Origin: a virus
Direction: 5' to 3' (one strand)
DNA: 41,695 nucleotides
Virus record (IMG/VR): IMGVR_UViG_3300045988_111105
Coordinates: 1-41,695 of that record
The notes beneath the pieces were generated by a model that saw only the letters and a list, made by a program, of their open reading frames with translations, was not told where the DNA came from and searched no databases. Shown one piece after another: positions 5,963 to 41,695 of this stretch. Each line of letters starts with the position of its first letter. Within the stretch, counting starts at the first letter, position 1. Position numbers and translations under genes: made by a program.

Positions 5963-8917
5963 ATGAGCAATATAGAGACTATAACTAGAGAGCATGATAA
6001 TTTCTCCTCTAGTTATGATGAACTTGTTTCTTTACTTGAAAGAGTAATAACAAATAGAAAAATAACACAAGATGACAAATATGATTTAGAAAAGGCGCAT
6101 GCCACTTATTCGGAAAATTATAATGAAGTCAAAAGAATACTAGAAAATGAAAGACAGACTAATCTGAAAGAACAAATTAAAGCTGTAAGTGACAGTAAAT
6201 TAGATGCAGATATAAAAAGCATAGTAAATATTCTTACGAATAATGGAGAAAAAACGACTTTATATTTAGATGAAAATGGAGTTTTATATATAGATGGGGA
6301 AAAAATTCCAGAAATACGTCAGACAAAACTTATAGTAGATGAACAAAATGGGAAAATTGAATCTTTAGTTGCTGATGGATTTGTAGAAGATGCCGAAGGG
6401 AATAAAGTTAAATTAAAAGTTCTATATTCAACATTATCTCAAACTGTAAATGGGATAGAGTCAAATGTGGGTACTATAGAAGGGGTAGCCAATGACGCTA
6501 ATTCAAAAGCAGAGGCTGCTATTACAAAAGCATCCCAATTAAAACAAACAGTGGATGGTATTAAGTCCACTGTAACAAGCACTAGTACTGTAGTAGATGG
6601 CTCTATAAAAGAAACTTATAACGAATTCTATTTATCTGACAGTAATACTTCTGCAACTGGAGGCACTTGGGCTACAACTGCTCCTGCCCCACAAGCTGGT
6701 AAATATATATGGTTAAGAGATGTGTATGTAACAAACAAAGGCGATAAAACTTATGGCAACCCTGTATGTATTACTGGAGCTAAGGGAGATAAAGGTGAAC
6801 GAGGGCTTCAAGGATTACAAGGAGAGAGAGGAGAACAGGGGGTACCTGGTAAAGACGGAGATGGGAAAACATCTTATTTCCATATAAAATATTCTAGTGT
6901 AGCTAATCCTACTGCATCTTACCAAATGTCAGAAACACCTGATATTTATATAGGAACTTACGTAGACTTTGACCCTTCAGATAGCACCGACCCTAATAAA
7001 TATATTTGGTATAGATTCCAAGGCTTACAAGGTGAAAAGGGAGAACGAGGAATACCTGGAGTTGGGACAGATGGGAAAACAAGCTATCTACACATTAAAT
7101 ATTCTGATGACGGTGGCCGAACTTTTACATCCTATAACGGTGAAACTGTAGGTACTTATATCGGAACTTATACAGATTTTAATCCAAGTGATTCACATGA
7201 TGTAGGTAGTTATACTTGGGCTAAAATTAAGGGTGACCAAGGTAGTGAAGGCATTGGCGTAAAACAAGTGCAGATATTATACTATGTACACTATAGTAAA
7301 ACATCAGCTCCAAGTACTTCAGCTACAGGGTGGACAACAAATATCCCAGCTTATCAGACAGATAGATATTTATGGCAAGTTAATAAAATTACTTATACAG
7401 ATAATTCGATAGCTTTTACTACTCCTGTATATCTAAGTAGTTGGGAGGCTAATAATAAAGCAGAAACTGCAATATCTATAGCTAACCAAACAAGTGAAAA
7501 ATTTGAATGGATAGTGCAAAAAGGCTCTACAAGTTCAAGCATAACTTTGACTGATAGCTTAATACAAGCAATAGCATCTTCTAACATTCAATTGTCAGCT
7601 AAGAAAATATTAATCAACGGATTAATGGAGGGTTCTGGTTGGAAAATTACTGATGAAGGTGAATTAGATATTTTGGATCTAAATGTAAGAGGTAATTTTA
7701 CATGTGATTCTTTAAATGTAGATACTTTGATATCAGCAGATATTCCACCTGCACTTTCTGAAAATAAAACTATCTATGTATCAAGTGGAGAAACAATTTC
7801 ACAATATTTAGATGATTTACCGTTGAATCTTAATGGTTTTACAGTAGAAATTTATCTAACTTCAAATACAACAGAAAATCTTGAGTTGAGAAGACATGCA
7901 AATGGACTAGTCAATATATTTCTATGTGGTAACACAATAAAAGGAACTATACGAAGTATATATAATAATGCCAAATACAGTATTTATGGGGGTAATAGTA
8001 TCACAGACACTACGATGGGTTCTATAATGCCTTATACTAGTTATAATGTGGGAAGTTATTATTATACTACTATATTTTCTGATTGCCCTAACGTAAATCT
8101 ATATAACTTAAAAGTTTATGGCGACAGTGTAAATTCCAATTCTGTAGGAGTTGGAGCAACTCAAAAATCAAAAGTGTATATGGAAAATATATCATTTGTA
8201 GGTTGTAAATATAATTGTAGAACTTATTCGATGACTGAATTGTATTGTCAATCATCTTCTGGTCTTTCGACTGGAAATTCGTGGAATACTGGTACAGGAG
8301 CAAAAATTGTGTTATATCCAGGACAACAAGCAGGTGGAGGAAATAATACATTTACAAGTGGTAATGGACAAATAATTTCTACTGGAGTTACTTTTGCATC
8401 TTCAAAAGATAGCGGTTCAAATACAACTACTGTCAACCCAACAACAACTAGATTTGAAACATTTAAACCAAAATATGCAGACACTTATAGAAGTTCAAAA
8501 TACAATAACTGGGAAGGTAGAGGAAAATGTAGACAAGGTAATTGGGGATATGGTAATTGTAATGGTTATTGGTTCTATGGTAGCCAATTTGCAGAAGTTA
8601 AAGGCAAGAATATAACAAAAGTTGAAATAGATGTGGCTAGAAGTAGTGATATAGGTTCATCAGCATCAACTTCTCATACTTTTAGAGCACATACATATGG
8701 TAGCCGACCAAGTTCAACGCCTAGTTTTTATACTAGTTGCAACAAGTCTCTATCATTAGCATGGGGAGGAAAAGGAACAGTTACAATTACAGATTCGACT
8801 GTTCTAAGTGGAATAAAAAATGGAACAATAAAAGGATTTGGAATTCAGTCAACGTACGATAGTAGTCATTACTCAGCGCTAACTAATGGAACAATAAGAA
8901 TTTACTATACAGAATAG
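5963..8917 (+). CDS. Tail fibre protein with collagen-like Gly-X-Y tracts and duplicated modules
   Basis: RBS ggaggg precedes the start. GXY runs are GAKGDKGERGLQGLQGERGEQGVPGKDGDGKT (about 6776-6870) and GLQGEKGERGIPGVGTDGKT (about 7021-7080). Each is followed by the repeated module GKTSYxHIKYS...GTYxDFxPSDSxD...YxW. The gene lies in the tail module. Confidence 0.75.
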   Translation: MSNIETITREHDNFSSSYDELVSLLERVITNRKITQDDKYDLEKAHATYSENYNEVKRILENERQTNLKEQIKAVSDSKLDADIKSIVNILTNNGEKTTLYLDENGVLYIDGEKIPEIRQTKLIVDEQNGKIESLVADGFVEDAEGNKVKLKVLYSTLSQTVNGIESNVGTIEGVANDANSKAEAAITKASQLKQTVDGIKSTVTSTSTVVDGSIKETYNEFYLSDSNTSATGGTWATTAPAPQAGKYIWLRDVYVTNKGDKTYGNPVCITGAKGDKGERGLQGLQGERGEQGVPGKDGDGKTSYFHIKYSSVANPTASYQMSETPDIYIGTYVDFDPSDSTDPNKYIWYRFQGLQGEKGERGIPGVGTDGKTSYLHIKYSDDGGRTFTSYNGETVGTYIGTYTDFNPSDSHDVGSYTWAKIKGDQGSEGIGVKQVQILYYVHYSKTSAPSTSATGWTTNIPAYQTDRYLWQVNKITYTDNSIAFTTPVYLSSWEANNKAETAISIANQTSEKFEWIVQKGSTSSSITLTDSLIQAIASSNIQLSAKKILINGLMEGSGWKITDEGELDILDLNVRGNFTCDSLNVDTLISADIPPALSENKTIYVSSGETISQYLDDLPLNLNGFTVEIYLTSNTTENLELRRHANGLVNIFLCGNTIKGTIRSIYNNAKYSIYGGNSITDTTMGSIMPYTSYNVGSYYYTTIFSDCPNVNLYNLKVYGDSVNSNSVGVGATQKSKVYMENISFVGCKYNCRTYSMTELYCQSSSGLSTGNSWNTGTGAKIVLYPGQQAGGGNNTFTSGNGQIISTGVTFASSKDSGSNTTTVNPTTTRFETFKPKYADTYRSSKYNNWEGRGKCRQGNWGYGNCNGYWFYGSQFAEVKGKNITKVEIDVARSSDIGSSASTSHTFRAHTYGSRPSSTPSFYTSCNKSLSLAWGGKGTVTITDSTVLSGIKNGTIKGFGIQSTYDSSHYSALTNGTIRIYYTE

Positions 8918-8958: not shown

Positions 8959-11514
8959 ATGTCTAATATAACTAATTTAAATAGAGATTACTTAATAAAA
9001 ATCAATGTAAAAGAAGCAACAATAGATGTACCTAAAATGACATTTTGGAATACAGATAAAAAGACTTCTAATATGTTTGTGCAACTTGTTATAAATATGA
9101 GTACAAATGAATTAATAAGTAATTATGTAACTGTACAAAATGCAACTGATTATAAAATTACACTAAATGTAATAAAGCCTAAAACAAATCAATATAAAAC
9201 AATTGAAGCAACTCTATTAAACGAAGAAAAAGCATTATTTGAAATAGATTTACCAGATGAATTTACTGATCAAGTTGGTAATTACAACTTTGAGTTTGAA
9301 GTATCTAGTAAAGTAGATAGTAATGATGAAAGTATAACTACTTCAAGTTCAAGTTACACAGTAAATGGAAGTATATTAACTAATTTAAACGAAGAAACAT
9401 CATCAAGTCCAGATTTACCAATTTTAAAACAGTTAATAGAACAAGTAAAATCTTTACAAGGTGGAGATTTAACAGGTTATCAAAAGAAAAGTGATAATTC
9501 ATTAGAAACAACTAGCAAGGAAGTAGTGGGAGCTATCAACGAAGTTAATTCGCAATTTAAAGAGATTGCGAAACAAATTGAACAAGGTGGGACAGGTGGA
9601 AATATTAATATGTCAGGTTTTACAGCGTATACATTATTTGAATCACCTACGATTGCAGATACATGGGCGTGTAAGAAAGGACCACGAATTTTAGAAATGA
9701 CATCAGATGAGTTTTTATCCACTTTTTATGATGCATATATTGGAACTAATTCTGATGGGTATACTGTTACAAAAACTGCATTAGGTAAAGATGAAACTCA
9801 AACTTATACAATTCACGAATATGACTTTAAGCCAAAAAATTGGAACAGAATGATATTACTATCTGGAGGTATGCATCCATATGAATTGTCAGCTTGTTTT
9901 GGCTTAGCTCACTTTATGAAATTTTTAATGAATAACCATGATTCTCATGAAGGTTTAAAATATATATATGAAAATGTAAGAATAAAAGTAGTTCCTATAA
10001 TAAATGTATGGGGGTGGAATCAAAATCCTAAAACATATGGAAATGTTAATGGCGTAAATATTAATAGAAATTTTGATGCTAATGGAAATTGGGATAAATT
10101 ACCTGTGGTAACACCTAGTCAAAACGAATGGAATGTAAAAGGGGATGCACCATTTTCAGAAAATGAGACAAAAGTTATGAATAACTGGTTATCAAATAAT
10201 ACTGGTGCTGAATTTTATATTGATACACATACTGGTTTAAATGCTTTTGGTAATGCAGATAATTGTTTATATTATCTTCCAAACAGTACTTTAAAAAACA
10301 AAATCGAAACAGCTTTAGGAAAGCTTAATAATTGGATAAAAGATAAATATGGAACATTAGGAACAAGTAATAGTGACAAAATGTGGACGGGAACACCGAA
10401 TTGCATTACTGATTATGCTGAAACATCTGCACTAGAAATACCAGCTTTCACAATAGAACAAAATCCTGAAAATAGAAAATGGGGTACATCGACTAATAAT
10501 GAAGGTTCTGATATAATGCATTATGTAACAACAATATCAACTTATATTATGGAACTTTTACTGAAAGAAACTGAAAATATAAATTTAAAGAATCTGATAA
10601 TAAAGTTAAAACAACAAGAAATTGAAGCTAATAAAAAATTGGAAAATGAAAAAGAACTAGAAACCAATAATTCTTATTATAGTATAACTAATAAATTAAC
10701 TAATTGTATAACAAATAATAATTCAACTTCTATAATGAAGGAATCACCATATAATGCTATAATAACACCAGATGACGGTTATATACTAAATAGTATAACT
10801 GTAACGATGGGTGGAACTGATATAACAAGTACAGTAGTTAATGAAAATTCTATAAACATTGCGAAGGTTACAGGAAATATAATTATTACTGCTATTGCAA
10901 GATTAAAAAGCAAAGATAATAAAAATATATTTAATGTAGATTTAACTACTGTAAGGAATGGCGATACAAGTATTATAGATACTACTAATAACAAAACATT
11001 AGATATTATAGGGAGTGATTGGACTAAAAATGATGATGGTGGTCTTGTTTTTGGGACAAATAGCTATATAAAATATAATGATGGATTATATGACAAGCAC
11101 AAAGAATTTACATTAGTATTAGATATGTTATTAGATAGTACAGTTAATAATAATGTAACTAGATATATTGTATATTATGGAGATTTTAATAGTTCTAACG
11201 ATGGGTTTGTAATAAAATTACATGGCAAGTTCCTTCAATTACAAGATTTTAGTAATTCGTTAATTAATATACAGTGGGATAAAACTAATATAGATAGCAG
11301 ACAAAAATATATAATAACATCAAGTGATGGAAATATTGTATTAAGAACAAAAAATGATATCCTTGCTACAGGAACTATAGATTTGAAAGTGCCAAGTTTA
11401 CTTCAAACAACATTCGGAAATATAGACCAATTTAATAGAAATACAAATACTAAATTCTATGGAATAAGTCTATATAATTATGCATTAAGTAATGAAGAAA
11501 TTCAATCATTATAA
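8959..11514 (+). CDS. Tail fibre / receptor-binding protein with an M14 carboxypeptidase-like domain, an Ig-like repeat and a C-terminal LamG-like domain
   Basis: RBS aaggagg precedes the start. It carries the tail-fibre motif SKEVVGAINEVNSQFKEI. M14-like zinc signature: GGMHPYE, NINRNF, YIDTHTG (about 9700-10560). The C-terminus (...FYGISLYNYALSNEEIQSL) is typical of LamG/concanavalin-like phage domains. Confidence 0.6.
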   Translation: MSNITNLNRDYLIKINVKEATIDVPKMTFWNTDKKTSNMFVQLVINMSTNELISNYVTVQNATDYKITLNVIKPKTNQYKTIEATLLNEEKALFEIDLPDEFTDQVGNYNFEFEVSSKVDSNDESITTSSSSYTVNGSILTNLNEETSSSPDLPILKQLIEQVKSLQGGDLTGYQKKSDNSLETTSKEVVGAINEVNSQFKEIAKQIEQGGTGGNINMSGFTAYTLFESPTIADTWACKKGPRILEMTSDEFLSTFYDAYIGTNSDGYTVTKTALGKDETQTYTIHEYDFKPKNWNRMILLSGGMHPYELSACFGLAHFMKFLMNNHDSHEGLKYIYENVRIKVVPIINVWGWNQNPKTYGNVNGVNINRNFDANGNWDKLPVVTPSQNEWNVKGDAPFSENETKVMNNWLSNNTGAEFYIDTHTGLNAFGNADNCLYYLPNSTLKNKIETALGKLNNWIKDKYGTLGTSNSDKMWTGTPNCITDYAETSALEIPAFTIEQNPENRKWGTSTNNEGSDIMHYVTTISTYIMELLLKETENINLKNLIIKLKQQEIEANKKLENEKELETNNSYYSITNKLTNCITNNNSTSIMKESPYNAIITPDDGYILNSITVTMGGTDITSTVVNENSINIAKVTGNIIITAIARLKSKDNKNIFNVDLTTVRNGDTSIIDTTNNKTLDIIGSDWTKNDDGGLVFGTNSYIKYNDGLYDKHKEFTLVLDMLLDSTVNNNVTRYIVYYGDFNSSNDGFVIKLHGKFLQLQDFSNSLINIQWDKTNIDSRQKYIITSSDGNIVLRTKNDILATGTIDLKVPSLLQTTFGNIDQFNRNTNTKFYGISLYNYALSNEEIQSL

Positions 11515-11515
11515 T

Positions 11516-11544
11516 TTGATATATTATAATTTGTATGATATCCT
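11516..11544 (+). promoter_or_regulatory. Putative sigma-A promoter of the acyltransferase moron
   Basis: TTGATA (11516-21), 17-nt spacer, then TGaTATCCT (extended -10, hexamer 11539-44), just upstream of the RBS aaagggggg. Confidence 0.45.
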
Positions 11545-11568
11545 TTAATTTAAAAGGGGGGTATTATA

Positions 11569-12593
11569 TGGAAATAAATAATAAAATAGCAATTTATGTA
11601 TTAGTATATATTATTTTGCCGATTATATTAATTTTAAGTTGTAAAAAACAAGATAAAAAAGATATATTAAGTAAAGATACAACTGATGCAATAAAAGGAT
11701 TTTTAGTTATTTATGTGGCAATACATCACTATGTACAGAAAATATCTAATCCAGAATTATTAAATCCTTTAAATTATGTTGGATTTTTATGTGTATCATT
11801 TTTCTTTTTAATGTCTGGTTATGGATTAACATTATCATATTATAAACATGGGAATCTTAAAGGATTTTTTAAAAAAAGATTTTTAAGATTATATTTTCCA
11901 TTTGTAGTAGCTAATATTTTAATAGGATTATTAGATAATATAACTATAAAAAGTGGATATTCTATAAAAGATATTTTGATTACATCATTTACTTTAAGAA
12001 CTATTGATGGTAGTGTTATGCTATGGTATATATTTGTTCAAATATTAATGTATATATTCTTTTATATTGCATTTACAATTTTAAGAAATAAAAATAGTAA
12101 AATCCTATGCATTATACTTTCAACACTAGCTTATATGTTTGTAGCTAAGCATTTAGGTCAAGGAGAATGGAGATATAATACTTGTTTATGTTTTTCAGTT
12201 GGAGTTATAATTGCTACTTATAAAGATAAATTAAAAGATATATTTGAAAAATATAGTATAGGAATAATAGGGATATTACTTACTGTATTTTTAGTATCTT
12301 GGTATTTGATTATAAAGGGAATATATAGTTATTGTATTACTTTTATATGTGCGGTAATATTTGCATTGCTATTAGTAGCAATTACATATAAAGTCAATTT
12401 CAAATCAAAAATATATAATTATATAGGTAAAATATCATATGAATTTTATATAATTCAGTTGCCAGTGATAGAAATGATTATTAATGTGATAGGAAATAAT
12501 GTTTTAGGAATATACTTAATTTTATTATCAACTGTAGTTATTTCCATAATAACTAATAAAATAGCAAACTATATAAATAGTAAGATAGACTAG
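11569..12593 (+). CDS. Acyltransferase family 3 integral membrane protein (O-acyl/acetyltransferase); lysogenic-conversion candidate
   Basis: About 10 hydrophobic segments. The N-terminal motif ...DAIKGFLVIYVAIHH... is typical of the acyltransferase_3 family. I prefer the ATG at 11569 (RBS aaggggggtattatATG) over the track start at 11535. Confidence 0.7.
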
Positions 12594-14523: not shown

Positions 14524-14757
14524 TTTACTGACGTTTTAACTGACATTTTAATTTAAAATTTTGCTAAAACGTTGATATTACTAATACTACAAGTTTAATA
14601 TAATATAGTTACAAGATATATTAAATATGATTTATTAGTGTTTAAATCGGTTTATAATGTTTAAATATCAGCGTTTTTGATTTATTTATTTTTAAATAAC
14701 TTACTGACAATTTACTGACCAGTTGAATTTTACTGATAAAACTGACAATTTACTGAC
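14524..14757. other. Candidate attP region with at least 7 direct copies of (T)TACTGA(C/T) (integrase arm-type sites)
   Basis: Copies lie at about 14526, 14537, 14701, 14712, 14730, 14739 and 14750, flanking a roughly 150-bp AT-rich stretch directly downstream of the integrase gene. Confidence 0.55.
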
Positions 14758-15877
14758 TTAATATATTGTCAATTTTATCAACTGCTATCTTATCATTTTC
14801 TTTAAAAGCGTGCGCGTAGATTTTTAATGTAATAGATATGTCGGAATGCCCCACGCGTTCTGATATTGTTTTTACATCTACGCCAGATGCGACTAACATA
14901 GAAACATGAGAATGTCTTAATGCATGTAGCTTTTTAAATTCAAGTCCGATTCTTTTAATAAATCGTTTAAAAGTGATATCTAGATTATATGGATTATAAT
15001 AATTGTTATTGCTATTTATACATACTGTGTCATATTCTTTTTCTTTCATTAAACCTTGTAACTTTAATTTATTTTGTCTTAATTTCTCTTTTTTTAACAT
15101 ATCAAAAACATGATCTGGTAGAGTGATGCTTCTTATTGATGATTCACTCTTTGGTTGCTTCATGATATATTTGCCTTCTATGTATTGTAAATTGTATTGA
15201 ATTTTTATAGTTTTATTTTCGAAGTCTACACAATCCCATGTTAAACCTAAAACCTCGCCACGTCTTAGACCTCCATAGATTAAAAGCTTTATAGTATTTT
15301 GAAAATATATACTTTCGCTTTCTAAAGCGTTTAGTATCTGTTTTATTTCTTCTATTGAATATATTTCCTCTTCGTGTGTTTTATTGTTCTTCGGAAGGAT
15401 AATAAAATCAGTAATCCTTTTATTTATCTCTTGTAATCTGTATGCTTCATTTAGCACAGCATTGCATAATTGCATTATTTTTCGTTTTGAACGATAAGCT
15501 AAATCTTTTTGAAACACATAATTAACAAATGTTTGATATTTATTTACAGTTATGTCACTTAATTTCATGTTTCCCCAATAAGGTTCGACATGTTTTTTTA
15601 CGATACTTTTTGCACAAGCAATAGTATTTTCGGATATTCCTAACTTACTATCATAATATTGATAACAACGATTTGTAAAAGAAATGTTACTCGGCAAAGC
15701 ATAAATATCATTATTTATACTATTTTTTACCTCTATTAATTTTTTATCAGCATCTTTTTTATTTGCGTATGATCCTTGACTCTTTTGTTTCTTTTTACCA
15801 ACTTCATCTATATATTCTACATATACATAATATTTGTCATTTCTTTTTCTTATAAAACTACTTAAGATTTTTTTCAT
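14750..15877 (-). CDS. int: Tyrosine-recombinase integrase
   Basis: 375 aa. Catalytic signature: GGLRRGEVLGL (Arg), HALRHSH (His-x-x-Arg), GHSDISITLKIYAH (Tyr). RBS aggagggttaccaATG. Confidence 0.9.
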   Translation of the reverse strand: MKKILSSFIRKRNDKYYVYVEYIDEVGKKKQKSQGSYANKKDADKKLIEVKNSINNDIYALPSNISFTNRCYQYYDSKLGISENTIACAKSIVKKHVEPYWGNMKLSDITVNKYQTFVNYVFQKDLAYRSKRKIMQLCNAVLNEAYRLQEINKRITDFIILPKNNKTHEEEIYSIEEIKQILNALESESIYFQNTIKLLIYGGLRRGEVLGLTWDCVDFENKTIKIQYNLQYIEGKYIMKQPKSESSIRSITLPDHVFDMLKKEKLRQNKLKLQGLMKEKEYDTVCINSNNNYYNPYNLDITFKRFIKRIGLEFKKLHALRHSHVSMLVASGVDVKTISERVGHSDISITLKIYAHAFKENDKIAVDKIDNILSQ

Positions 15878-29257: not shown

Positions 29258-29700
29258 AACTAACTGAAAAACAGAAAGCATTTTGTGACTATTATATAGA
29301 ATCACTTAATGCTACTGAAAGTTATAAAAAAGCTTATAATTGCACTAATGAAACTACAGCAAGGACAAATGGAGCTAAAAACCTTCAAAAACCTTTAATC
29401 AAAAAATACATAGAAGAACAATTAAAACAAATGAAGTCAAATAGAATAGCAGACGCGACAGAAGTATTGGAATACCTTACAAGAATTATAAGAAATGAAG
29501 AAACAGAAGAAGCTGTATTGACAGTAAATACAGGTGATTTTACAAGTGAGGTGCGAAAGGTCCAAAAAGAAATTTCGGCTAAAGATAAAATAAAAGCTGC
29601 TGAGCTTCTAGGTAAAAGATACGGCTTATACACTGAAAAAGTAGAAGTAAATGGAGACATGGGAGTTAAAATAGTTGATGATATCCCTGATGAAGAATGA
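29254..29700 (+). CDS. terS: Terminase small subunit
   Basis: LTEKQKAFCDYYIESLNATESYKKAYNCTNETTARTNGAKNLQKPLIKKYI is the typical Terminase_2 N-terminus. GTG start. Confidence 0.85.
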   Translation: MKLTEKQKAFCDYYIESLNATESYKKAYNCTNETTARTNGAKNLQKPLIKKYIEEQLKQMKSNRIADATEVLEYLTRIIRNEETEEAVLTVNTGDFTSEVRKVQKEISAKDKIKAAELLGKRYGLYTEKVEVNGDMGVKIVDDIPDEE

Positions 29701-30965
29701 AACTGACAGAATTAATCGCTCCAAGTTTTTATAAAGTACATCATGATATAAAACAAGGTAAACATACACATTACTGGTTTAAAGGTGGCCGTGGTAGTAC
29801 TAAATCATCATTTATAGGTACAGAAATACCTCTTAATATGATGAAGGATGCTGAAAAAGGAATATATTCAAATGCTGTTATTTTTAGGCGAGTAAAAGAT
29901 GTTTTAAGAAGCTCAGTATTTGAACAGATTTTATGGTCCATAGAAAAACTTGGCGTTACAAGCAAATGGAAAGTAAGTTACTCTCCATTGAAGCTTACTT
30001 ACATACCTACAGGCCAAGAAATACTTTTTAGAGGTGCTGACAATCCTAAAAAAGTTAAATCTATAAAAGTATCAAAAGGATATATAAAATATATATGGTT
30101 TGAAGAAGTAGACGAATTTGAAAACTACGATAAGATAAGAAATATAAATCAATCTCTTATGCGTGGTGGACCTAAGTTTTTTGTATTTTATTCTTTTAAC
30201 CCTCCAGAATCACAAAGAAACTGGGCGAACATGGAAGTATTAGACGAAAGAACAGATAAATATGTGCATCATAGCGATTACAGAAGTGTACCGAAAGATT
30301 GGTTAGGAGAACAATTCATAATAGAAGCTGAACACCTTAAAAAAGTAAATGTAACGAAATATGAACATGATTATTTAGGTGCTGTTACTGGTACAGGTGG
30401 AGAAGTATTCTTAAATGTAACAATAAGAAAAATAACTGATGAAGAAATAAAGAACTTTGATAGATTAAAAAGAGGGCTTGACTGGGGATACGCACAAGAC
30501 CCATTTGCTTATATTGTTATGAATTACGATAAAACAAGAAAAAGATTATATATATTTAAAGAAATATATCAAACTAGATTATCTAATTCAAAAGCAGCTG
30601 AAAAAATAAAACAATTAGATCCTAATCCAAAACTTATTATTGCAGACTCAGCTGAACCTAAATCTATAAAAGATTTAAAGGACTTAGGCTTAAAAGTAAG
30701 AGGAGCTAAAAAAGGGCCTGATAGTGTAGACTATGGAATCAAATTTTTATCAGAAGAAATAGAAGAAATAATAATAGATAGTGATAGATGCCCTAATACG
30801 GCTAGAGAGTTTTTAGGATATGAAACTGAAAAAGATAAAGATGGAAACTTTAAAGGTGAGTATCCAGACAAAAACAATCATACAATAGATGCAGCAAGAT
30901 ATGCTATGGAAGATGAAATCAGACAAAACAGAATTAAATCTAAGAAATTAAATCTAGGAATATAG
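29697..30965 (+). CDS. terL: Terminase large subunit (PBSX-type)
   Basis: Walker A is FKGGRGSTKSS. The C-terminal nuclease region is GLDWGYAQDP...DKNNHTIDAARYA. ATGA overlap with terS. Confidence 0.9.
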   Translation: MKLTELIAPSFYKVHHDIKQGKHTHYWFKGGRGSTKSSFIGTEIPLNMMKDAEKGIYSNAVIFRRVKDVLRSSVFEQILWSIEKLGVTSKWKVSYSPLKLTYIPTGQEILFRGADNPKKVKSIKVSKGYIKYIWFEEVDEFENYDKIRNINQSLMRGGPKFFVFYSFNPPESQRNWANMEVLDERTDKYVHHSDYRSVPKDWLGEQFIIEAEHLKKVNVTKYEHDYLGAVTGTGGEVFLNVTIRKITDEEIKNFDRLKRGLDWGYAQDPFAYIVMNYDKTRKRLYIFKEIYQTRLSNSKAAEKIKQLDPNPKLIIADSAEPKSIKDLKDLGLKVRGAKKGPDSVDYGIKFLSEEIEEIIIDSDRCPNTAREFLGYETEKDKDGNFKGEYPDKNNHTIDAARYAMEDEIRQNRIKSKKLNLGI

Positions 30966-36688: not shown

Positions 36689-37036
36689 ATGATATTAAAT
36701 ATAAATGGAAGAGACTATGAATTAAAATATACAATGAGAATACTTAAAAAATTATCTCAAAGTGGTTTAGATCCATACACAAATTTAGATAAAATTGCGG
36801 GAACTGTACCTAATGTAATAAAATCATTTCATTATGGACTTTTAGAAGAAAATAGTAAAATGACAGAAGCTATGGCAGAAAAATTAATAGATGCTTATGT
36901 AGCAGAAGGAAATTCTACAATAGATTTAGGAAATCTAATAGTTGATGCTGTAATGGAAGCTTTAGGTTTCAATTCGGATGATGTAATAGAAAGCAATGAA
37001 GAAAATGATTTAGAAGAAAGCGAAGAGGGAAAGTAG
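36689..37036 (+). CDS. Tail assembly chaperone (G-like)
   Basis: 115 aa with an acidic C-terminus. It ends at a TAG immediately after a GGGAAAG slippery site. Confidence 0.75.
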   Translation: MILNINGRDYELKYTMRILKKLSQSGLDPYTNLDKIAGTVPNVIKSFHYGLLEENSKMTEAMAEKLIDAYVAEGNSTIDLGNLIVDAVMEALGFNSDDVIESNEENDLEESEEGK

Positions 37037-37371
37037 AACTCAAAGAGCTAATTGAGAATCTATATAAAAAGTTAGTAGGTGGTATGAAAATGCCACCTTC
37101 TTCTTTTTGGCATCTAACTATACATGAAGCTAATTTAGCACTAGAAGGCTATAAAAAGGAGCAACAAGAACAATACAATTTAAGTTTATGTTGTTTACAA
37201 AATGCTTTAGGAATGGCCTTTGGAGGGGATAAATTCAAGCCTATCAATCCTTTTGAGAGTGCTAAGAGTAAAAAAGAAGCTCATAAAGTAAGCAAGAAAC
37301 AAAGAGAAGAAAACTTGGCATATATAAATAATTTATTTGAAAAATTTGGAGGTGGTGAAAATAGCAACTAA
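36689..37371 (+). CDS. Tail assembly chaperone G-T fusion made by -1 frameshift (about 227 aa)
   Basis: The zero frame runs to codon AAG (37031-33). After slipping back 1 nt, translation continues GTA GAA CTC... (VELKELIENLYKKLVGGMKMPP...) to the TAA at 37369-71. Confidence 0.65.
37027..37033 (+). promoter_or_regulatory. Programmed -1 ribosomal frameshift site G GGA AAG
   Basis: The heptamer is in the X XXY YYZ register of the G frame. The -1 frame is open from 37009 through 37371. Confidence 0.75.
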
Positions 37372-38059
37372 AGTTTTAAATGTAAAAATAAATGCTGATA
37401 TAGCTTCCTTCAAAACTAAGATGCAAGATGCTAAAAAATCAATCCAGGATATGTCAGAAAGTATTAAAAAAGCAACTGGCAATAGTAAATTAAGTGATAC
37501 ATTAGGAGCTTCTGATTTTGGTAAGAAATTAGAAGAAGTAAAAACCAAAGCATCTAATTTAGGTCAAGTGTTTAAAGCATTACCTGGACCAGCTAAAGCG
37601 CTTGTTGTTGTAACTGCAGTATTAACAGTTACTAAAAAGTTATATGATGCTGGAAAACAGAGGTTTTTTGAAGGACTTAATAATATAAAAGATACAGTCT
37701 CCCCTGTGTTTCAAGGTATGCTCACCTCGATAAATGCAGTTAAAGATGCTTTTAGCGAGTTAACAGGATTTGATTTTAATCTTTCAAGTCTTATAACAAC
37801 TGGAGCAAACTTTGAATCGCAAATGAAAACAGTTGCTACAATAGCTGGAAGTGTAGGGACTGAATTTGACCAGTTAGTTGCAAAAGCTAGAGAATTAGGA
37901 GCCGCAACTACATTTAGCGCTAGCCAAGTGGGCCAAGCAATGCAATACATGGCTATGGCGGGCTGGTCAACTCAAGAGATGCTTGATGGTGTACAATCTA
38001 CATTGAATTTAGCAAAAATAGGTGCTACAGATTTAGGAACAGCTAGTGATATTTTGACT
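37337..38059 (+). CDS. Tape measure protein, exon 1
   Basis: TP901-type TMP core GANFESQMKTVATIAGS...ATTFSASQVGQAMQYMAMAGWSTQEM...DLGTASDILT. Homology stops at codon ACT (38057-59). The start codon is uncertain (TTG 37337 or GTG 37352/37355). Confidence 0.8.
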
Positions 38060-38339
38060 AAAATATTGGTCGGTTTAGTAGAAATACTATTCAAAAAATA
38101 TTCGGTGAATTGCTGGAAGGCTAAGTTAATATTTTAATATTAATATGCTAATCAGCAACCAAGCCATGGAAAGCCGTAAAAGTACATGGAAGGTTCAGAG
38201 ACTAGGAGAATGAATAGGCAAATAATAATTTCTCCCACGAGCGCCGAACACCTTACTATTAAGTTAAAGGTGATGATATAGTCCCATCCTCTTATGAAAG
38301 TAAGAGTTCTAGGATAAAGAGCCTAGATATAAGATAATG
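38060..38339 (+). ncRNA. Group I self-splicing intron (IA-type), with no internal ORF
   Basis: P1 U.G pair (ttgacT / Ggtcgg). P aattgctggaaggc pairs with Q aatcagcaa. R ggttcagagacta pairs with S gatatagtcc. P2 and P9 have GAAA tetraloops; P3, P7.1, P8 and P9.1 are present; the terminal G is at 38339. Removing the element restores the TMP reading frame. Confidence 0.85.
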
Positions 38340-41237
38340 GATGATTTAACAGCACTTGGAATGCAAGCAAATCAAGCTGGTGACTTTGCGGATAAATTAG
38401 CTGCAACTATTACTAGAAGTAATACCGATGTAGTTTTATTCGGTGAATCTATGAAGCAGACAGGTGCTATTGCTGGAGCATTAGGCGCATCTATGACAGA
38501 TTTATCAACTAGTATAGGCCTAATGGCGAATGCTGGTATTAAAGGTAGTAAAGCGGGGATGTCATTAAAAAATATGTTATCGAATATGGCAAACCCAACA
38601 GACCAACAAGACCGTGCTTTACAAGAATTAGGAATGACCGCTGACAAAACAGGAAGTTATCTAAAAACAACAGCAGATGGATGTACAGACTTAAAAGCAA
38701 CGGTATCAGCATTAAGAGAAGGCACAGAAAAAATGACAAGAAGTCAAAAAGCAGCTTTAATTGCCACTGTTGCTGGTAAAAATGCTTTACCAGGAGTTAT
38801 GTCATTAGTTAATGCATCAGCAGAGGAATACAACAAACTATCAGATGCGATAGATAATTCAACTTCTACAGTTAGTATGTTCAATGAAAACATGGGTATT
38901 TTAGGCCTTAAAGGTGAAGATGCTACAAAGAGAATAGAAGTTATGAAAGATGTATTTTCTAATACTGAAATTTCAGCAACTGCATTAGGACTATCAAGTA
39001 AGGATTTAGGTTATGCGATATCTTTACTAGGTGATGATTGTAAAGTTAGTACTCAATCTGTAGAGGATTTGCTTGATGTAGTAGAATCTATGGATAATGC
39101 TAGCGGTAAAGTTGATAAATTCTGGAGAAGTGTAGGAAATGCTAAAAACATAGAAATAGACGGAAAAGCAATAAATCAACTGATAGATTATAACGGAACT
39201 CTAAGCACTATAGATAATTCTATAGTTGGACTTAGTGATCATACAGTAGAATATGCTAAAAAGCATAATGAAAACTATAAAAACACAAAAGAATACGTTA
39301 AATCACTTGTAAAAGAAGGAATGACGTTAGATGATGCTAATAGCAAGCTTTCTAAGTATGGTATAGAAGCTGAAAAAATATCATTATCTACATTGTCAAT
39401 GTCTCAAAAGACAGATTACCTAAGACAAGCCTTTAAAGGTATGTCAGACGAGCAAATAAAAGCTAAATTGCAAACTATAGGACTTGGAGATAGCTTTGAT
39501 GAAGTTAATGAAATAGTTGATATGTCAGATGAAAAATATGAAACTTATAAGAAGAATCTTCAAGAAATCGAAGGATTATCAACTAGATTAGCTGACAGTA
39601 TTGACGAAACAACTAAATCAACGTTCTTAGCATTATCAAGTGCGATAGAAGATAGTTTAATAGGTGCATTTGAAAAGATGAAACCAGCTCTTATAAGTGG
39701 TTCTCAAGCTATTACAGACTTTTTCTCAACTTGGAGAAATGGAGATAAAAACACTTATACTTTTGATGGGCTTGAAAAAGGATTAGCAGATTTAGAAACA
39801 AAAGTATCTAATGCAGCTAAAAATATACCTACTATAATAACTAATGCTATAAGTGGAGCGAACAGATTTATAAGTGGTGGTTCTTTAGATAGTTTATTAA
39901 GCATGGGTAGTAGTATAGTTAAAAATATAGCTCAAGGTATAATAAATAACAAAGATGGCTTATCTACTGCAATATCTAACTTGATATCAAAAGCCTGTAG
40001 TTGGATTCAAGAAAATGGACCTATGGTTCAACAAGCTGGGAAAGTTATCTTAGAAGCTATAGGAGAAGGTATAAGAAATAACAGAGATCAAATAAATTCA
40101 GCATGTGGTGTTATCTATGATGCGATGAATGATTGGTCAGCTACAAATGCTGAAAATATGGGTATGCTTGGTGGTTCAGTAGCAGATAAATTTATTTGGG
40201 GATTTATAAAAGGATTTACACTAGATAAATTTAATGGCTTAAAAGGTTTCTTTACTGGATTATTTAACAATAACGGAGAAGATGCTTATCAACAGTGGGG
40301 TATTTCTAGTGGAGAGCAATATACAACTGGTATAAACTCAGGACTTGAACAAAGTAAATCAACAACAAATGCTACTGCAACAGAAATAGGCGATGGTATT
40401 TCTAAAAATATAATGAATAAGTTAGAAACTATGAATACAAGCCAATTAAAAGAGTTAGAAGATGAATTAAAATCTTTACAAACAACAACTCGAAATGTAG
40501 CTAATGGCATAGGTTCAAGCTTTGGAAAGATTAGAAATACAGTCAGAGAAAATTTAGTGGGTAGTGTTAACATAGGTAGAAATCAATTTGTTAACTTAGC
40601 TAATATTATAAAAAATCAATCTCAAAATGCTAGAAACAATGCAACAAAGAGCTTTATATCACTTAGAAAAGTTATAACAACTCAAATAACTCAAGCTAGA
40701 ACTAATGTAACAAGTAAAATGATATCTATTGCTAATGTTGTAAGAACACAGTCACAAAATGCACGTAACAATGCTACAAGAAGCTTTATATCTTTGCGCA
40801 AGGTTATACAAACTCAAATGGCGCAAGCTTATAGTTCAGTAAGTAGTTATATGTCTAAAATGGCATCTGCTACAAATAGAACACTTAATACAAAAGTTAA
40901 TGTAACTAGAACAGTTAATACTGTTAATCAAAGTGCTAAAACAGCCAATTTAAAAGCTGTAAATACAATGGCATATTCAAACTTAGCTTATAGCGCTATA
41001 AAAGCTACAAATAATGCTGCAACTGCTAGTTTAGCTAGTGCGCCAACTGCAAACTTTGCAAGTTCTTCAAGCAGTGTATCTAGTTCTTCTAATAGTACAG
41101 CAAAAGCTACAAGAGATATGAGGATTGTAATGCCTGTATACCTTGACAGTAAGGTTATAGGCGAATCTACTGCTGATGTAGTAGATAATAAAATAAAAGT
41201 AAAAACAAGAAGAGAAAACAGAAAGAGAGGTAGATAA
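38340..41237 (+). CDS. Tape measure protein, exon 2
   Basis: It resumes the TMP core (DDLTALGMQANQAGDFADKLAATITRSNTDVVLFGESMKQTG...GIKGSKAGMSLKN). A 44-aa tandem repeat QSQNARNNAT(K/R)SFISLRKVI lies near 40600-40830. The ATG at 38337 in the track is fortuitous. Confidence 0.85.
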   Translation, partial: DDLTALGMQANQAGDFADKLAATITRSNTDVVLFGESMKQTGAIAGALGASMTDLSTSIGLMANAGIKGSKAGMSLKNMLSNMANPTDQQDRALQELGMTADKTGSYLKTTADGCTDLKATVSALREGTEKMTRSQKAALIATVAGKNALPGVMSLVNASAEEYNKLSDAIDNSTSTVSMFNENMGILGLKGEDATKRIEVMKDVFSNTEISATALGLSSKDLGYAISLLGDDCKVSTQSVEDLLDVVESMDNASGKVDKFWRSVGNAKNIEIDGKAINQLIDYNGTLSTIDNSIVGLSDHTVEYAKKHNENYKNTKEYVKSLVKEGMTLDDANSKLSKYGIEAEKISLSTLSMSQKTDYLRQAFKGMSDEQIKAKLQTIGLGDSFDEVNEIVDMSDEKYETYKKNLQEIEGLSTRLADSIDETTKSTFLALSSAIEDSLIGAFEKMKPALISGSQAITDFFSTWRNGDKNTYTFDGLEKGLADLETKVSNAAKNIPTIITNAISGANRFISGGSLDSLLSMGSSIVKNIAQGIINNKDGLSTAISNLISKACSWIQENGPMVQQAGKVILEAIGEGIRNNRDQINSACGVIYDAMNDWSATNAENMGMLGGSVADKFIWGFIKGFTLDKFNGLKGFFTGLFNNNGEDAYQQWGISSGEQYTTGINSGLEQSKSTTNATATEIGDGISKNIMNKLETMNTSQLKELEDELKSLQTTTRNVANGIGSSFGKIRNTVRENLVGSVNIGRNQFVNLANIIKNQSQNARNNATKSFISLRKVITTQITQARTNVTSKMISIANVVRTQSQNARNNATRSFISLRKVIQTQMAQAYSSVSSYMSKMASATNRTLNTKVNVTRTVNTVNQSAKTANLKAVNTMAYSNLAYSAIKATNNAATASLASAPTANFASSSSSVSSSSNSTAKATRDMRIVMPVYLDSKVIGESTADVVDNKIKVKTRRENRKRGR

Positions 41238-41695
41238 ATGTATAAATACGGTGACATTGTATTAGACGATTTAGAAGGCTTTGGAATAAAAGAAATAGAT
41301 ATGCCTATGCTACCTCCTTCTGAATCTGATTCTATTGAAACATGGAGCGATAACGGAGATATTTTTAGTGGAAGTAGAAAGAAAAAACGACAAATAAGCA
41401 TTAAATTTTGTGTTGAATGTGATGATAAGGATACTTATGATACTACTGTAGATGCTATAGCAGATGCTTTTGATGTAGATACTCCACAAGCTTTTTACAT
41501 AGAAGATGAAGAAAAATTTATTTACTGTATTCCAGAAGATGAAGTAGAGTTCGGGGATATAGTTATTAGAGATAATAAATGTTATGGTGAGGGAAGTGTG
41601 TCCTTAATGGCATACGACCCTTATTTTTATATAGAAGAAGCTAAAATATTCGAAGGTGATAAAAAAATTATTTATTCGAATGAAGGTAAAAAGCC
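41238..41695 (+). CDS. Distal tail protein (Dit), 5' part; continues at position 78 / 1..1629
   Basis: The ATG overlaps the TMP stop (TAAATG). The N-terminal sequence MYKYGDIVLDDLEGFGIKEIDMP...SGSRKKKRQISIKF is typical of the siphovirus tail family. The ORF is open to the end of the window. Confidence 0.8.
   Translation, partial: MYKYGDIVLDDLEGFGIKEIDMPMLPPSESDSIETWSDNGDIFSGSRKKKRQISIKFCVECDDKDTYDTTVDAIADAFDVDTPQAFYIEDEEKFIYCIPEDEVEFGDIVIRDNKCYGEGSVSLMAYDPYFYIEEAKIFEGDKKIIYSNEGKK
41619..41695. repeat. Second copy of the 77-bp terminal overlap
   Basis: Identical to 1-77. Confidence 0.9.

Follow-up and report, generated by a model that had tools for sequence, protein, structure and literature searches.

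A predicted endonuclease-free group I intron in the tape measure gene of an uncultured temperate phage

The window, by which we mean the whole stretch of 41,695 nucleotides analysed here (IMG/VR record IMGVR_UViG_3300045988_111105), is a complete circular phage genome assembly in which bases 1-77 are repeated at 41619-41695. The genome carries an integrase, TerL, an SPP1-type portal, Dit, Tal and an amidase lysin. Two open reading frames on the same strand, at 37337-38137 (266 aa) and 38337-41237 (966 aa), occupy the position expected for the gene of the tape measure protein (TMP): a GGGAAAG -1 frameshift site is found in the chaperone pair just upstream, and Dit and Tal come after, across the circular junction. 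A megablast search of the TMP region against 50,697 phage records gave no match, and the phage is thus without a close cultured relative. A scan of genome contigs gave relatives of the TMP that were distant only and belonged to gut Firmicutes and Negativicutes MAGs (41-53% amino acid identity), and the nearest cultured relatives are Clostridium phages, with about 49% TerL identity. The phage is best described from these data as an uncultured, temperate, low-GC phage of gut type.

Joining position 38059 to position 38340 keeps the reading frame and gives a protein of 1206 aa. Pfam PF10145 (PhageMin_Tail, the TP901-type core) matched this spliced protein in one stretch, from profile positions 3 to 201, with 144.6 bits. 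The upstream ORF alone corresponded to profile positions 3-65, and the downstream ORF alone to positions 65-201. The interruption of the gene thus falls mid-domain, and excision of the intervening sequence restores the domain exactly. These matches bear out the initial annotation of this DNA, which had recognised a split TP901-type TMP whose family sequence resumes at 38340, and had predicted that in-frame excision would yield a TMP of 1206 aa. Homologues at 47-55% identity read ...SDIVTDALTA... uninterrupted through the junction, and, in a set of 930 phage records, the annotated tape measure genes that match best also run through it. The ATG that opens the downstream ORF consists of the last three bases of the intervening sequence, which leads gene callers to predict two genes instead of one. 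For annotation, this means that two 'hypothetical' ORFs represent one tape measure gene, and that the predicted tail length should rest on about 1206 residues and not on 966. The coordinates of the exons and of all the features described below are collected in Table 1.

The intervening 280 nt had been read in the initial annotation as a group I intron devoid of a homing endonuclease ORF, and a covariance-model search with RF00028 and a comparison with intron-less homologues had been named as checks. The Rfam model RF00028 (Intron_gpI) matched positions 38050-38306 on the + strand with 104.9 bits (gathering score 50, E = 2.3e-26). The match spans model positions 1-253 of 253, i.e. the full model, and it was the sole Rfam hit across the 41.7-kb window. 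We also built a custom covariance model, R1, from four introns aligned with MAFFT, using the helices of the initial annotation. R1 scored 269.9 bits on the intron 38060-38339 and gave no other hit in the window. No endonuclease ORF was found in the 280-nt intron, all six frames being full of stops, in line with what had been proposed.

The ends of the element were defined by comparison with the contig L002, in which the intron site is empty and the 4.8 kb before it are 95% identical to the window. There the sequence reads ...GATATTTTAACA/GATGATTTAACT..., with nothing in between (the slash marks the junction here and below); this empty allele is also quoted as ...GATATTTTAACAGATGATTTA..., and the ligated exons of the window would read ...GATATTTTGACT/GATGATTTAACA.... 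Because L002, near-identical in the flanks, has an empty site, the insertion corresponds exactly to 38060-38339, and the empty site matches both of the splice sites that had been placed by the initial annotation. The insertion site, termed site A (38059/38340), is occupied in the window and in contigs L011, L013-L015, L018, L020, L024 and L026. In L002 and L003 it is unoccupied, and intron-plus and intron-minus alleles are thus found in closely related genomes. The same insertion with the same ends was present in at least nine independent contigs from several samples, and the ORF-less form of the site-A intron in at least six independent contigs; a 26-nt word taken from P1-P2 was present in 16 IMG/VR viral contigs. 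In the occupied allele, the exon end TTGACT pairs with the guide GGUCGG of the intron, and (T/G)TGACT precedes the splice site in every occupied site-A allele found. The empty allele of L002 has the synonymous TTAACA, which would pair poorly with the guide and would be without the splice-site U.

Table 1. Features of the tape measure locus and of the predicted intron (window coordinates; a slash within a peptide marks the insertion point).
Feature	Position	Strand	Remarks
TMP exon 1	37337..38059	+	241 codons if TTG 37337 is the start; ends ...DLGTASDILT
Predicted group I intron	38060..38339	+	280 nt, no ORF; RF00028, model R1, empty site in L002
TMP exon 2	38340..41237	+	965 codons plus stop; starts DDLTALGMQANQ...
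P1	38054..38073	+	UUGACU and intron AA (38054-61) pair with internal guide UUGGUCGG (38066-73)
P2 hairpin	38076..38089	+	GAAA loop; 5/5 pairs changed on both sides among relatives
P3 5′ strand	38101..38107	+	Pairs with 38242-38248, 7 bp; 6/7 pairs with double-sided changes (alignment A6)
P4-P5-P5a region	38110..38158	+	P4, 38110-16 with 38152-58, encloses P5 and P5a
P5	38119-21 with 38147-49	+	Inside P4
P5a hairpin	38126-32 with 38137-43	+	7 bp, continues P5
P6 hairpin	38164..38189	+	CCAUG with CAUGG; 5/5 pairs compensatory in A6
P7 5′ strand	38198..38204	+	G198, bulged A199, G200-A204; pairs with 38279-38284
P7.1-like hairpin	38205..38235	+	GGAGAA with UUCUCC, 6 bp
P3 3′ strand	38242..38248	+	Pairs with 38101-38107
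P8 hairpin	38249..38272	+	Base-by-base check, covariation alignment
P7 3′ strand	38279..38284	+	Pairs with 38198-38204 around bulged A38199
P9	38289-38306	+	GAAA loop; 7/7 pairs compensatory
P9.1	38309-38326	+	4/5 pairs compensatory; sequence CTAGGATAAAGAGCCTAG
Omega-G and first exon-2 bases GAUG	38339..38343	+	Can form P10 with U38064-U38067
Site B	37954..37955	+	After residue 206 (QYMA/MAGW); empty in window, occupied in 8 related contigs
Site A	38059/38340	+	After residue 241 (SDI[LV]T/DD); occupied in window; PF10145 profile position about 65
Site C	38537..38538	+	After residue 307 (MANAG/IKGS); empty in window, occupied in relatives
Site D	38582..38583	+	After residue 322 (KNMLA/NMA; window KNMLS/NMANP); empty in window, occupied in relatives

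The fold of the element was inspected helix by helix. All 13 helices were found to be without mismatch in a base-by-base check, with Watson-Crick or G.U pairs only. P1, P2, P4, P6, P7, P7.1, P8, P9 and P9.1 lie where the first reading of the sequence had placed them; P3 was likewise present, with a length of 7 bp instead of the 5 bp given there. The P5a hairpin, 38126-38143, is an addition to that list of helices. The core of P1 is formed between the exon sequence UUGACU (38054-59) and the guide GGUCGG (38068-73). The 5′ splice site follows U38059, which is paired with G38068, and this U.G pair is kept in 17 of the 18 related introns. In P7, the pair G198-C284 is followed by the bulged A199 and then by G200-C283, which is invariant in all introns compared (18/18). 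The guanosine-binding site is predicted at G200-C283, which we take to be the guanosine-binding pair by analogy with Tetrahymena G264-C311. The omega-G had been correctly placed at 38339: it stands directly before the empty-site junction, and all 19 aligned related introns end in G. P10 comprises 4 bp (38064-67 with 38340-43), two of them G.U, and is hence weak. The P7.1-like hairpin is the least conserved helix among relatives (64.8% of cells paired), and a separate P7.2 was not identified between the 5′ strand of P7 and the 3′ strand of P3. The subgroup IA label is plausible because of the P7.1 hairpin located between P7 and P3′. Folding of the sequence alone with ViennaRNA gave the same helices in the centroid, with an MFE of -65.4 kcal/mol and a fold z of -2.87 versus dinucleotide shuffles.

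The pairings were further evaluated by covariation among related introns, using as controls the same alignments in which the 3′ partners had been slid by 1-3 columns. In the four-sequence MAFFT alignment, made without reference to any structure, 88.5% of cells were paired as compared to 29-49% in the slid controls, and 20 pairs were changed on both sides as compared to 4-7. When 19 intact related introns were aligned to R1, 91.8% of cells were paired (31-46% in the slid controls) and 48 of the 64 pairs were changed on both sides (9-17 in the slid controls). This larger set is biased toward the proposed structure, being aligned to a model built from it; the bias is partly answered by the MAFFT-based control, which also supports the helices. 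Three of the six pairs of the P7 pseudoknot helix were compensatory, and P7 was outside the R1 model. The site-A ribozymes are identical or nearly so, and the covariation is contributed by related introns that occupy other sites and other genes. When the introns of site D and of JCL1032 were included, MAFFT misaligned either the core or the 5′ end, and these alignments were discarded. The conserved core by which group I introns are recognised, made of P4-P6, P3-P7-P8 and the P3/P7 pseudoknot, is present and is accompanied by covariation.

Siblings of the intron were found that carry an endonuclease gene. In L011, L013 and L020, site A, the same site as in the window, is occupied by an intron of 1413 nt. 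It consists of the window intron plus a cassette of 1133 nt, inserted after intron base 74 in the terminal loop of P5a (38133/38134). The cassette encodes a protein of 321 aa with an HNH domain (PF01844, 29.6 bits versus a cut-off of 21.4). Without the cassette, the ribozyme of the siblings is 100% identical to that of the window, and the other ORF-less site-A copies (272 and 288 nt) differ in the P5a loop only. Because the siblings combine the identical ribozyme with an HNH gene, the window intron is, as judged from this comparison, the endonuclease-free form of a mobile intron, either a derivative or a precursor. The window copy cannot home by itself since it is without the endonuclease gene; it would be either a copy left behind at the loss of the ORF or one that can be mobilised in trans.

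An intron without its homing endonuclease gene represents the stage that precedes degeneration in the cycle of gain, decay and loss, and the sequence comes from an assembly and not from a propagated phage. The element could therefore be viewed as a decayed, splicing-incompetent remnant, in a phage or prophage defective in tail assembly, but we consider this very unlikely. No helix carries a mismatch, the Rfam score reaches 104.9 bits, the ribozyme is identical to that of the endonuclease-carrying copies, and the same ORF-less form recurs in the six or more independent contigs mentioned above. The exons also speak against decay. Exon 1 differs from that of L002 by 38 synonymous and 9 nonsynonymous codon differences, and the first 66 codons of exon 2 by 7 synonymous and 1 nonsynonymous differences. 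These ratios indicate that the TMP exons are under purifying selection, and the other structural and lysogeny genes are intact. An intact circular genome together with purifying selection is difficult to reconcile with a decayed prophage in which this gene is dead.

On the basis of these features, we propose that the late transcript would fold into the ribozyme, in which the guide GGUCGG would pair with the exon end UUGACU to form P1 and would present U38059. A free guanosine, bound at G200-C283 of P7, would attack after U38059. The terminal G38339 would then occupy the same pocket while the short P10 would hold exon 2, and the exons would be ligated to ...GAUAUUUUGACU/GAUGAUUUA.... As cDNA, the predicted ligated junction reads ...ATTTTGACT/GATGATTTA... 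(also given as GTGATATTTTGACT/GATGATTTAACAGC), and the junction peptide of the spliced TMP would be ...TASDILTDDLTALGMQ... (also given as IGATDLGTASDILTDDLTALGMQANQAGDFADK). These steps follow established group I ribozyme chemistry. The full protein of about 1206 aa would be encoded only by the spliced mRNA; unspliced mRNA would give a 266-aa product ending in ...NCWKAKLIF, with the stop 25 codons into the intron. The in-frame stop met by read-through of exon 1 is at 38135-38137, within the P5a loop, and translation of exon 1 through the 5′ strands of P1 to P5 could in principle interfere with folding. Splicing of the TMP transcript and its efficiency in vivo are both points that we infer from the sequence.

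The same two ORFs could also be taken at face value, the tape measure then being made of two polypeptides, from ORF 37337-38137 and ORF 38337-41237, with the RNA unspliced or splicing irrelevant. Both pieces are indeed open and have possible start codons, the second one beginning at ATG 38337, and public gene callers give the halves as separate proteins in relatives, phiCP13O being annotated in this way. However, the break would then fall in the middle of PF10145, at profile position 65 of 201, and near-identical phages encode the same region of the TMP as one unbroken stretch. Moreover, ATG 38337 coincides with the last three bases of the intron, related introns end with UUG or UAG and thus share the final G alone, and the 5-12 nt upstream of this ATG contain no GGAGG-like ribosome-binding site. 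Independent translation of the second half is unlikely since its ATG is the intron end and is without a ribosome-binding site. Nor does a two-polypeptide tape measure offer any reason to keep a conserved and covarying ribozyme, and we hold it to be even less probable than a decayed intron.

Other features, namely an assembly artefact, a group II intron, an intein, an insertion sequence, or a translational bypass or frameshift site, are generic alternatives for split genes with nothing specific in their favour, and for practical purposes they are refuted by the RF00028 match, the stops, the empty site and the covariation: the recurrence of the insertion with the same ends in at least nine independent contigs from several samples contradicts an artefact, an intein would be in frame and stop-free whereas the element has stops in all frames, neither the terminal inverted repeats nor the transposase of an insertion sequence was found, and RF00028, the splice-site U.G, the omega-G and the P3/P7 pseudoknot all fit a group I intron. 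We thus regard it as highly probable that 38060-38339 is a genuine ORF-less group I intron, located between codons 241 and 242 of the TMP of a complete temperate siphovirus-type phage. Its ends are precisely fixed, and the intron is very probably functional.

The introns of phage T4 td and of Staphylococcus phage Twort orf142 are the classic phage IA introns. They are small self-splicing introns located in essential phage genes, with a P7.1/P7.2 region and, when an ORF is present, with this ORF in a peripheral loop, and orf142 of Twort contains up to three introns in one gene. Their host genes belong to nucleotide metabolism (td) or are an unknown structural gene (orf142). In the searches run here, no sequence similarity was found between the window intron and the introns of T4 td or Twort orf142.

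The initial annotation had held that no group I intron was described in a tape measure gene. This does not stand: such introns were described in 2008 (PMC2504315), one is annotated in phage JCL1032, and those of phage ICP1 were reported in 2023 (PMC10448857). The window intron thus adds one more case to a class already on record, that of group I introns which lack an endonuclease and interrupt the tape measure gene of a phage. In prophages of the Bacillus cereus group, introns of subgroups IA1 and IA2 occur at three TMP sites (TMP-IVS1, IVS2, IVS3a and IVS3b), with up to two per gene, and the same survey lists the JCL1032 TMP intron (Tourasse & Kolsto 2008, NAR 36:4529, PMC2504315). As in the window and its relatives, these introns are found in temperate siphovirus-type prophages of Firmicutes, at several sites per gene, and many copies are without a complete endonuclease gene; similar introns are present at different sites with a site-adapted P1, and different introns share one site (PMC2504315). 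The modular pattern seen in the family of the window intron is the same. The window intron differs from those of the B. cereus group by its host lineage and its sequence family. IVS3b on pBWB404 lies at ...LIGAQIFG/..YEDQG..., which is not site A but another region in a TMP of another type. Site A may be an unreported TMP insertion site, the comparison with the B. cereus group covering IVS3b on pBWB404 only.

The tape measure gene was called a 'frequently interrupted gene' by Barth, Nguyen & Seed 2023 (PMC10448857). In Vibrio phage ICP1, the TMP gene contains three introns, and a four-exon mRNA was demonstrated by RNA-seq, RT-PCR and Sanger sequencing; some of these introns have an HNH ORF and others do not, and their occupancy varies among isolates while the junctions are constant (PMC10448857). 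ICP1 is a myovirus of a Gram-negative host, its TMP and intron sequences are unrelated to those of the window, and its splicing evidence is experimental, whereas that for the window phage is computational. That tail length can depend on RNA splicing was already implicit in the 2008 work, and in 2023 experiments showed that a TMP transcript is spliced, so that the window raises no new question in this respect. It provides a well-bounded addition to the growing evidence that TMP genes are favoured targets of self-splicing introns and endonucleases.

Two further likenesses come from cultured phages. In the Lactobacillus delbrueckii phage JCL1032 (NC_019456), ORF17, the TMP CDS, is given as a join in the annotation and includes a hit to RF00028. 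This TMP is also of the PF10145 type, and its intron scored 59.4 bits with RF00028 and 126.7 bits with R1. The 3′ part of the intron shares sequence with the window intron (78% over 92 nt), including an identical P9.1 sequence, CTAGGATAAAGAGCCTAG. At 322 nt the JCL1032 intron exceeds that of the window in length, its P5 and P7.1-7.2 regions being larger, and beyond the segment from P8 to P9.1 the two introns have little identity overall. The insertion point in JCL1032, ...ELANRG(M)/DGTRAG..., matches site C (about aa 307) and not site A (aa 241); this comparison was made by eye since tblastn of the window TMP against the JCL1032 locus gave no hit. In the Clostridium perfringens phages phiCP13O, phiCP34O and vB_CpeS-17DYC, which are the nearest cultured relatives, the TMP is split at ...ADNGIKG/.EGGTALRN, near site C. 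The gap carries an ORF of 267 aa, contains sequence with 73% identity to the P4-P7 core of the window intron, and scored 78 bits with R1. In GenBank, the TMP of phiCP13O and phiCP34O is given as two 'tail length tape measure protein' CDSs, without annotation of an intron. The TMP introns of JCL1032 and phiCP13O are thus within a few codons of site C.

The most interesting part of the analysis lies outside the window, in the introns of its relatives. R1 hits in related contigs placed four insertion sites in a stretch of 116 codons of the PF10145 domain (numbered on the window protein). All four are occupied in the contig L012, by ORF-less introns of 262, 293, 270 and 295 nt. Once these four introns are removed, a single ORF of 1293 aa or more is restored, whose internal exons measure 105, 198 and 45 nt; four introns in one gene would exceed the three reported for the TMP of ICP1 and for Twort orf142. 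Rfam scored the D-type intron at only 20 bits and missed several others. No introns were obtained when L002 and L003 were scanned whole with Rfam at the gathering threshold, and a permissive Rfam search still missed the L003 introns and the L029 introns split by an ORF. These negatives reflect the limits of the filter and of the model, since R1 scored the same elements at 78-254 bits.

Comparison of the introns at the four sites points to an exchange of parts. The introns at sites A and D share a P1-P2 module that is 94% identical and has the same guide GGUCGG, directed at UUGACU and UUGGCU, respectively, whereas outside P1-P2 they are only 45-56% identical, with about 50% for the catalytic cores. 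At the empty site D of the window the sequence is TTATCG, as compared to TTGGCT in the occupied alleles. The introns at sites B and C show the reverse distribution: their P3-P7.1 core is 97-100% identical, and they differ in P1-P2 (76%) and in P8, P9 and P9.1 (50-61%). The introns of the relatives are, on this sequence comparison, modular mosaics, and the shared modules would point to new homing specificities gained either through module exchange within the gene or through reverse-splicing into look-alike sites. We suggest, tentatively and as the less likely outcome, that the window intron might belong to an undescribed modular family that colonises four sites of one TMP domain in uncultured low-GC phages. 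The empty site, the endonuclease-carrying siblings and the four-site hot spot constitute a natural data set on how such introns acquire target sites.

The introns inserted at sites A to D, the four insertion sites in the tape measure protein (TMP) domain of the window and its relatives, are modular mosaics. Those of sites A and D have in common a P1-P2 targeting module that is 94% identical, while their cores have diverged (window 38060-38339 compared with 7210-7512 of the related contig L002). Conversely, the site-B and site-C introns have a core that is 97-100% identical and differ in P1-P2, P8 and P9 (5739-6000 of the related contig L003 compared with L002 6904-7164). This pattern suggests recombination between introns, or retargeting to the look-alike sites UUGACU, UUGGCU and AUGGCU.

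The occupied allele of site A in the window and the empty allele in L002 (38040-38059 and 6686-6705, respectively) are distinguished by six substitutions, five of which fall in the 15 bases directly 5′ of the intron site. All six are synonymous, including a switch of serine codon family from AGT to TCA. The divergence between the two sequences around site A is about 5%. Either co-conversion tracts or selection for endonuclease resistance would fit this pattern.

In the relatives, the same TMP domain holds four group I introns in a stretch of 116 codons (L012 10833-12306 on the minus strand; also L016, L017 and L019), separated by internal exons of 105, 198 and 45 nt. With all four introns removed, a single ORF of at least 1293 aa is recovered. 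Such packing of introns may be the densest yet observed in a phage gene.

The Rfam group I intron model RF00028 badly under-detects this intron family, as judged from the elements at L002 7204-7512 and at L003 5733-6000 and 6343-7731. The first of these, the site-D intron, scored 20 bits. The site-B intron (L003 5733-6000) gave no RF00028 match even at E <= 1, yet reached 239 bits with a custom model, and the ORF-split introns of the family were missed altogether.

In the published genome of Clostridium phage phiCP13O (NC_019506; 955-4121), the annotation divides the tape measure gene into two CDSs, and the 1-kb gap between them contains intron-like sequence, with matches of 78 and 26 bits to R1, the covariance model built from four related introns, together with a 267-aa ORF; neither is annotated as an intron. 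The same DNA match was obtained in phiCP34O and vB_CpeS-17DYC. Among GenBank phage records, the window's intron has its closest full-length relative (69% identity) in the human faecal phage MT837385. This phage carries two related group I introns (1945-2212 and 2497-2772; RF00028 scores of 32 and 77 bits), spaced by about 300 nt. The gene that hosts them, which does not encode a TMP, has no known function, and an HNH-like ORF adjoins the first intron. HNH homing endonuclease genes interrupt the gene for the large terminase in the related C. perfringens phages PMQ04 and CPQ4; that of the window is uninterrupted.

Features of the window outside the TMP gene
Feature	Position	Strand
Peptidase_M14 protein	8959-11514	
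Acyl_transf_3 gene	11535-12593	
Tyrosine integrase	14750-15877	minus
Large terminase gene	29697-30965	
First tail-chaperone ORF	36689-37036	
Slippery heptamer GGGAAAG and adjoining stop codon	37027-37036	
Second chaperone ORF	37084-37371	

Just upstream of the TMP gene, the first tail-chaperone ORF has a lambda-type slippery heptamer immediately before its stop codon, and from the heptamer the -1 frame stays open into the second ORF. This corresponds to the canonical G/GT-like programmed frameshift.

The window is a circularly closed assembly that represents the whole genome of the phage, about 41,618 bp long, since bases 1-77 are repeated exactly at 41619-41695 and positions 1-2384 continue the L002 synteny past the TMP gene. 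The phage is temperate, a tyrosine integrase being present. In the tail-fibre region, an 851-aa protein with a zinc carboxypeptidase domain (Peptidase_M14, 61 bits) is followed by a membrane acyltransferase gene; the two may serve lysogenic conversion or surface modification.
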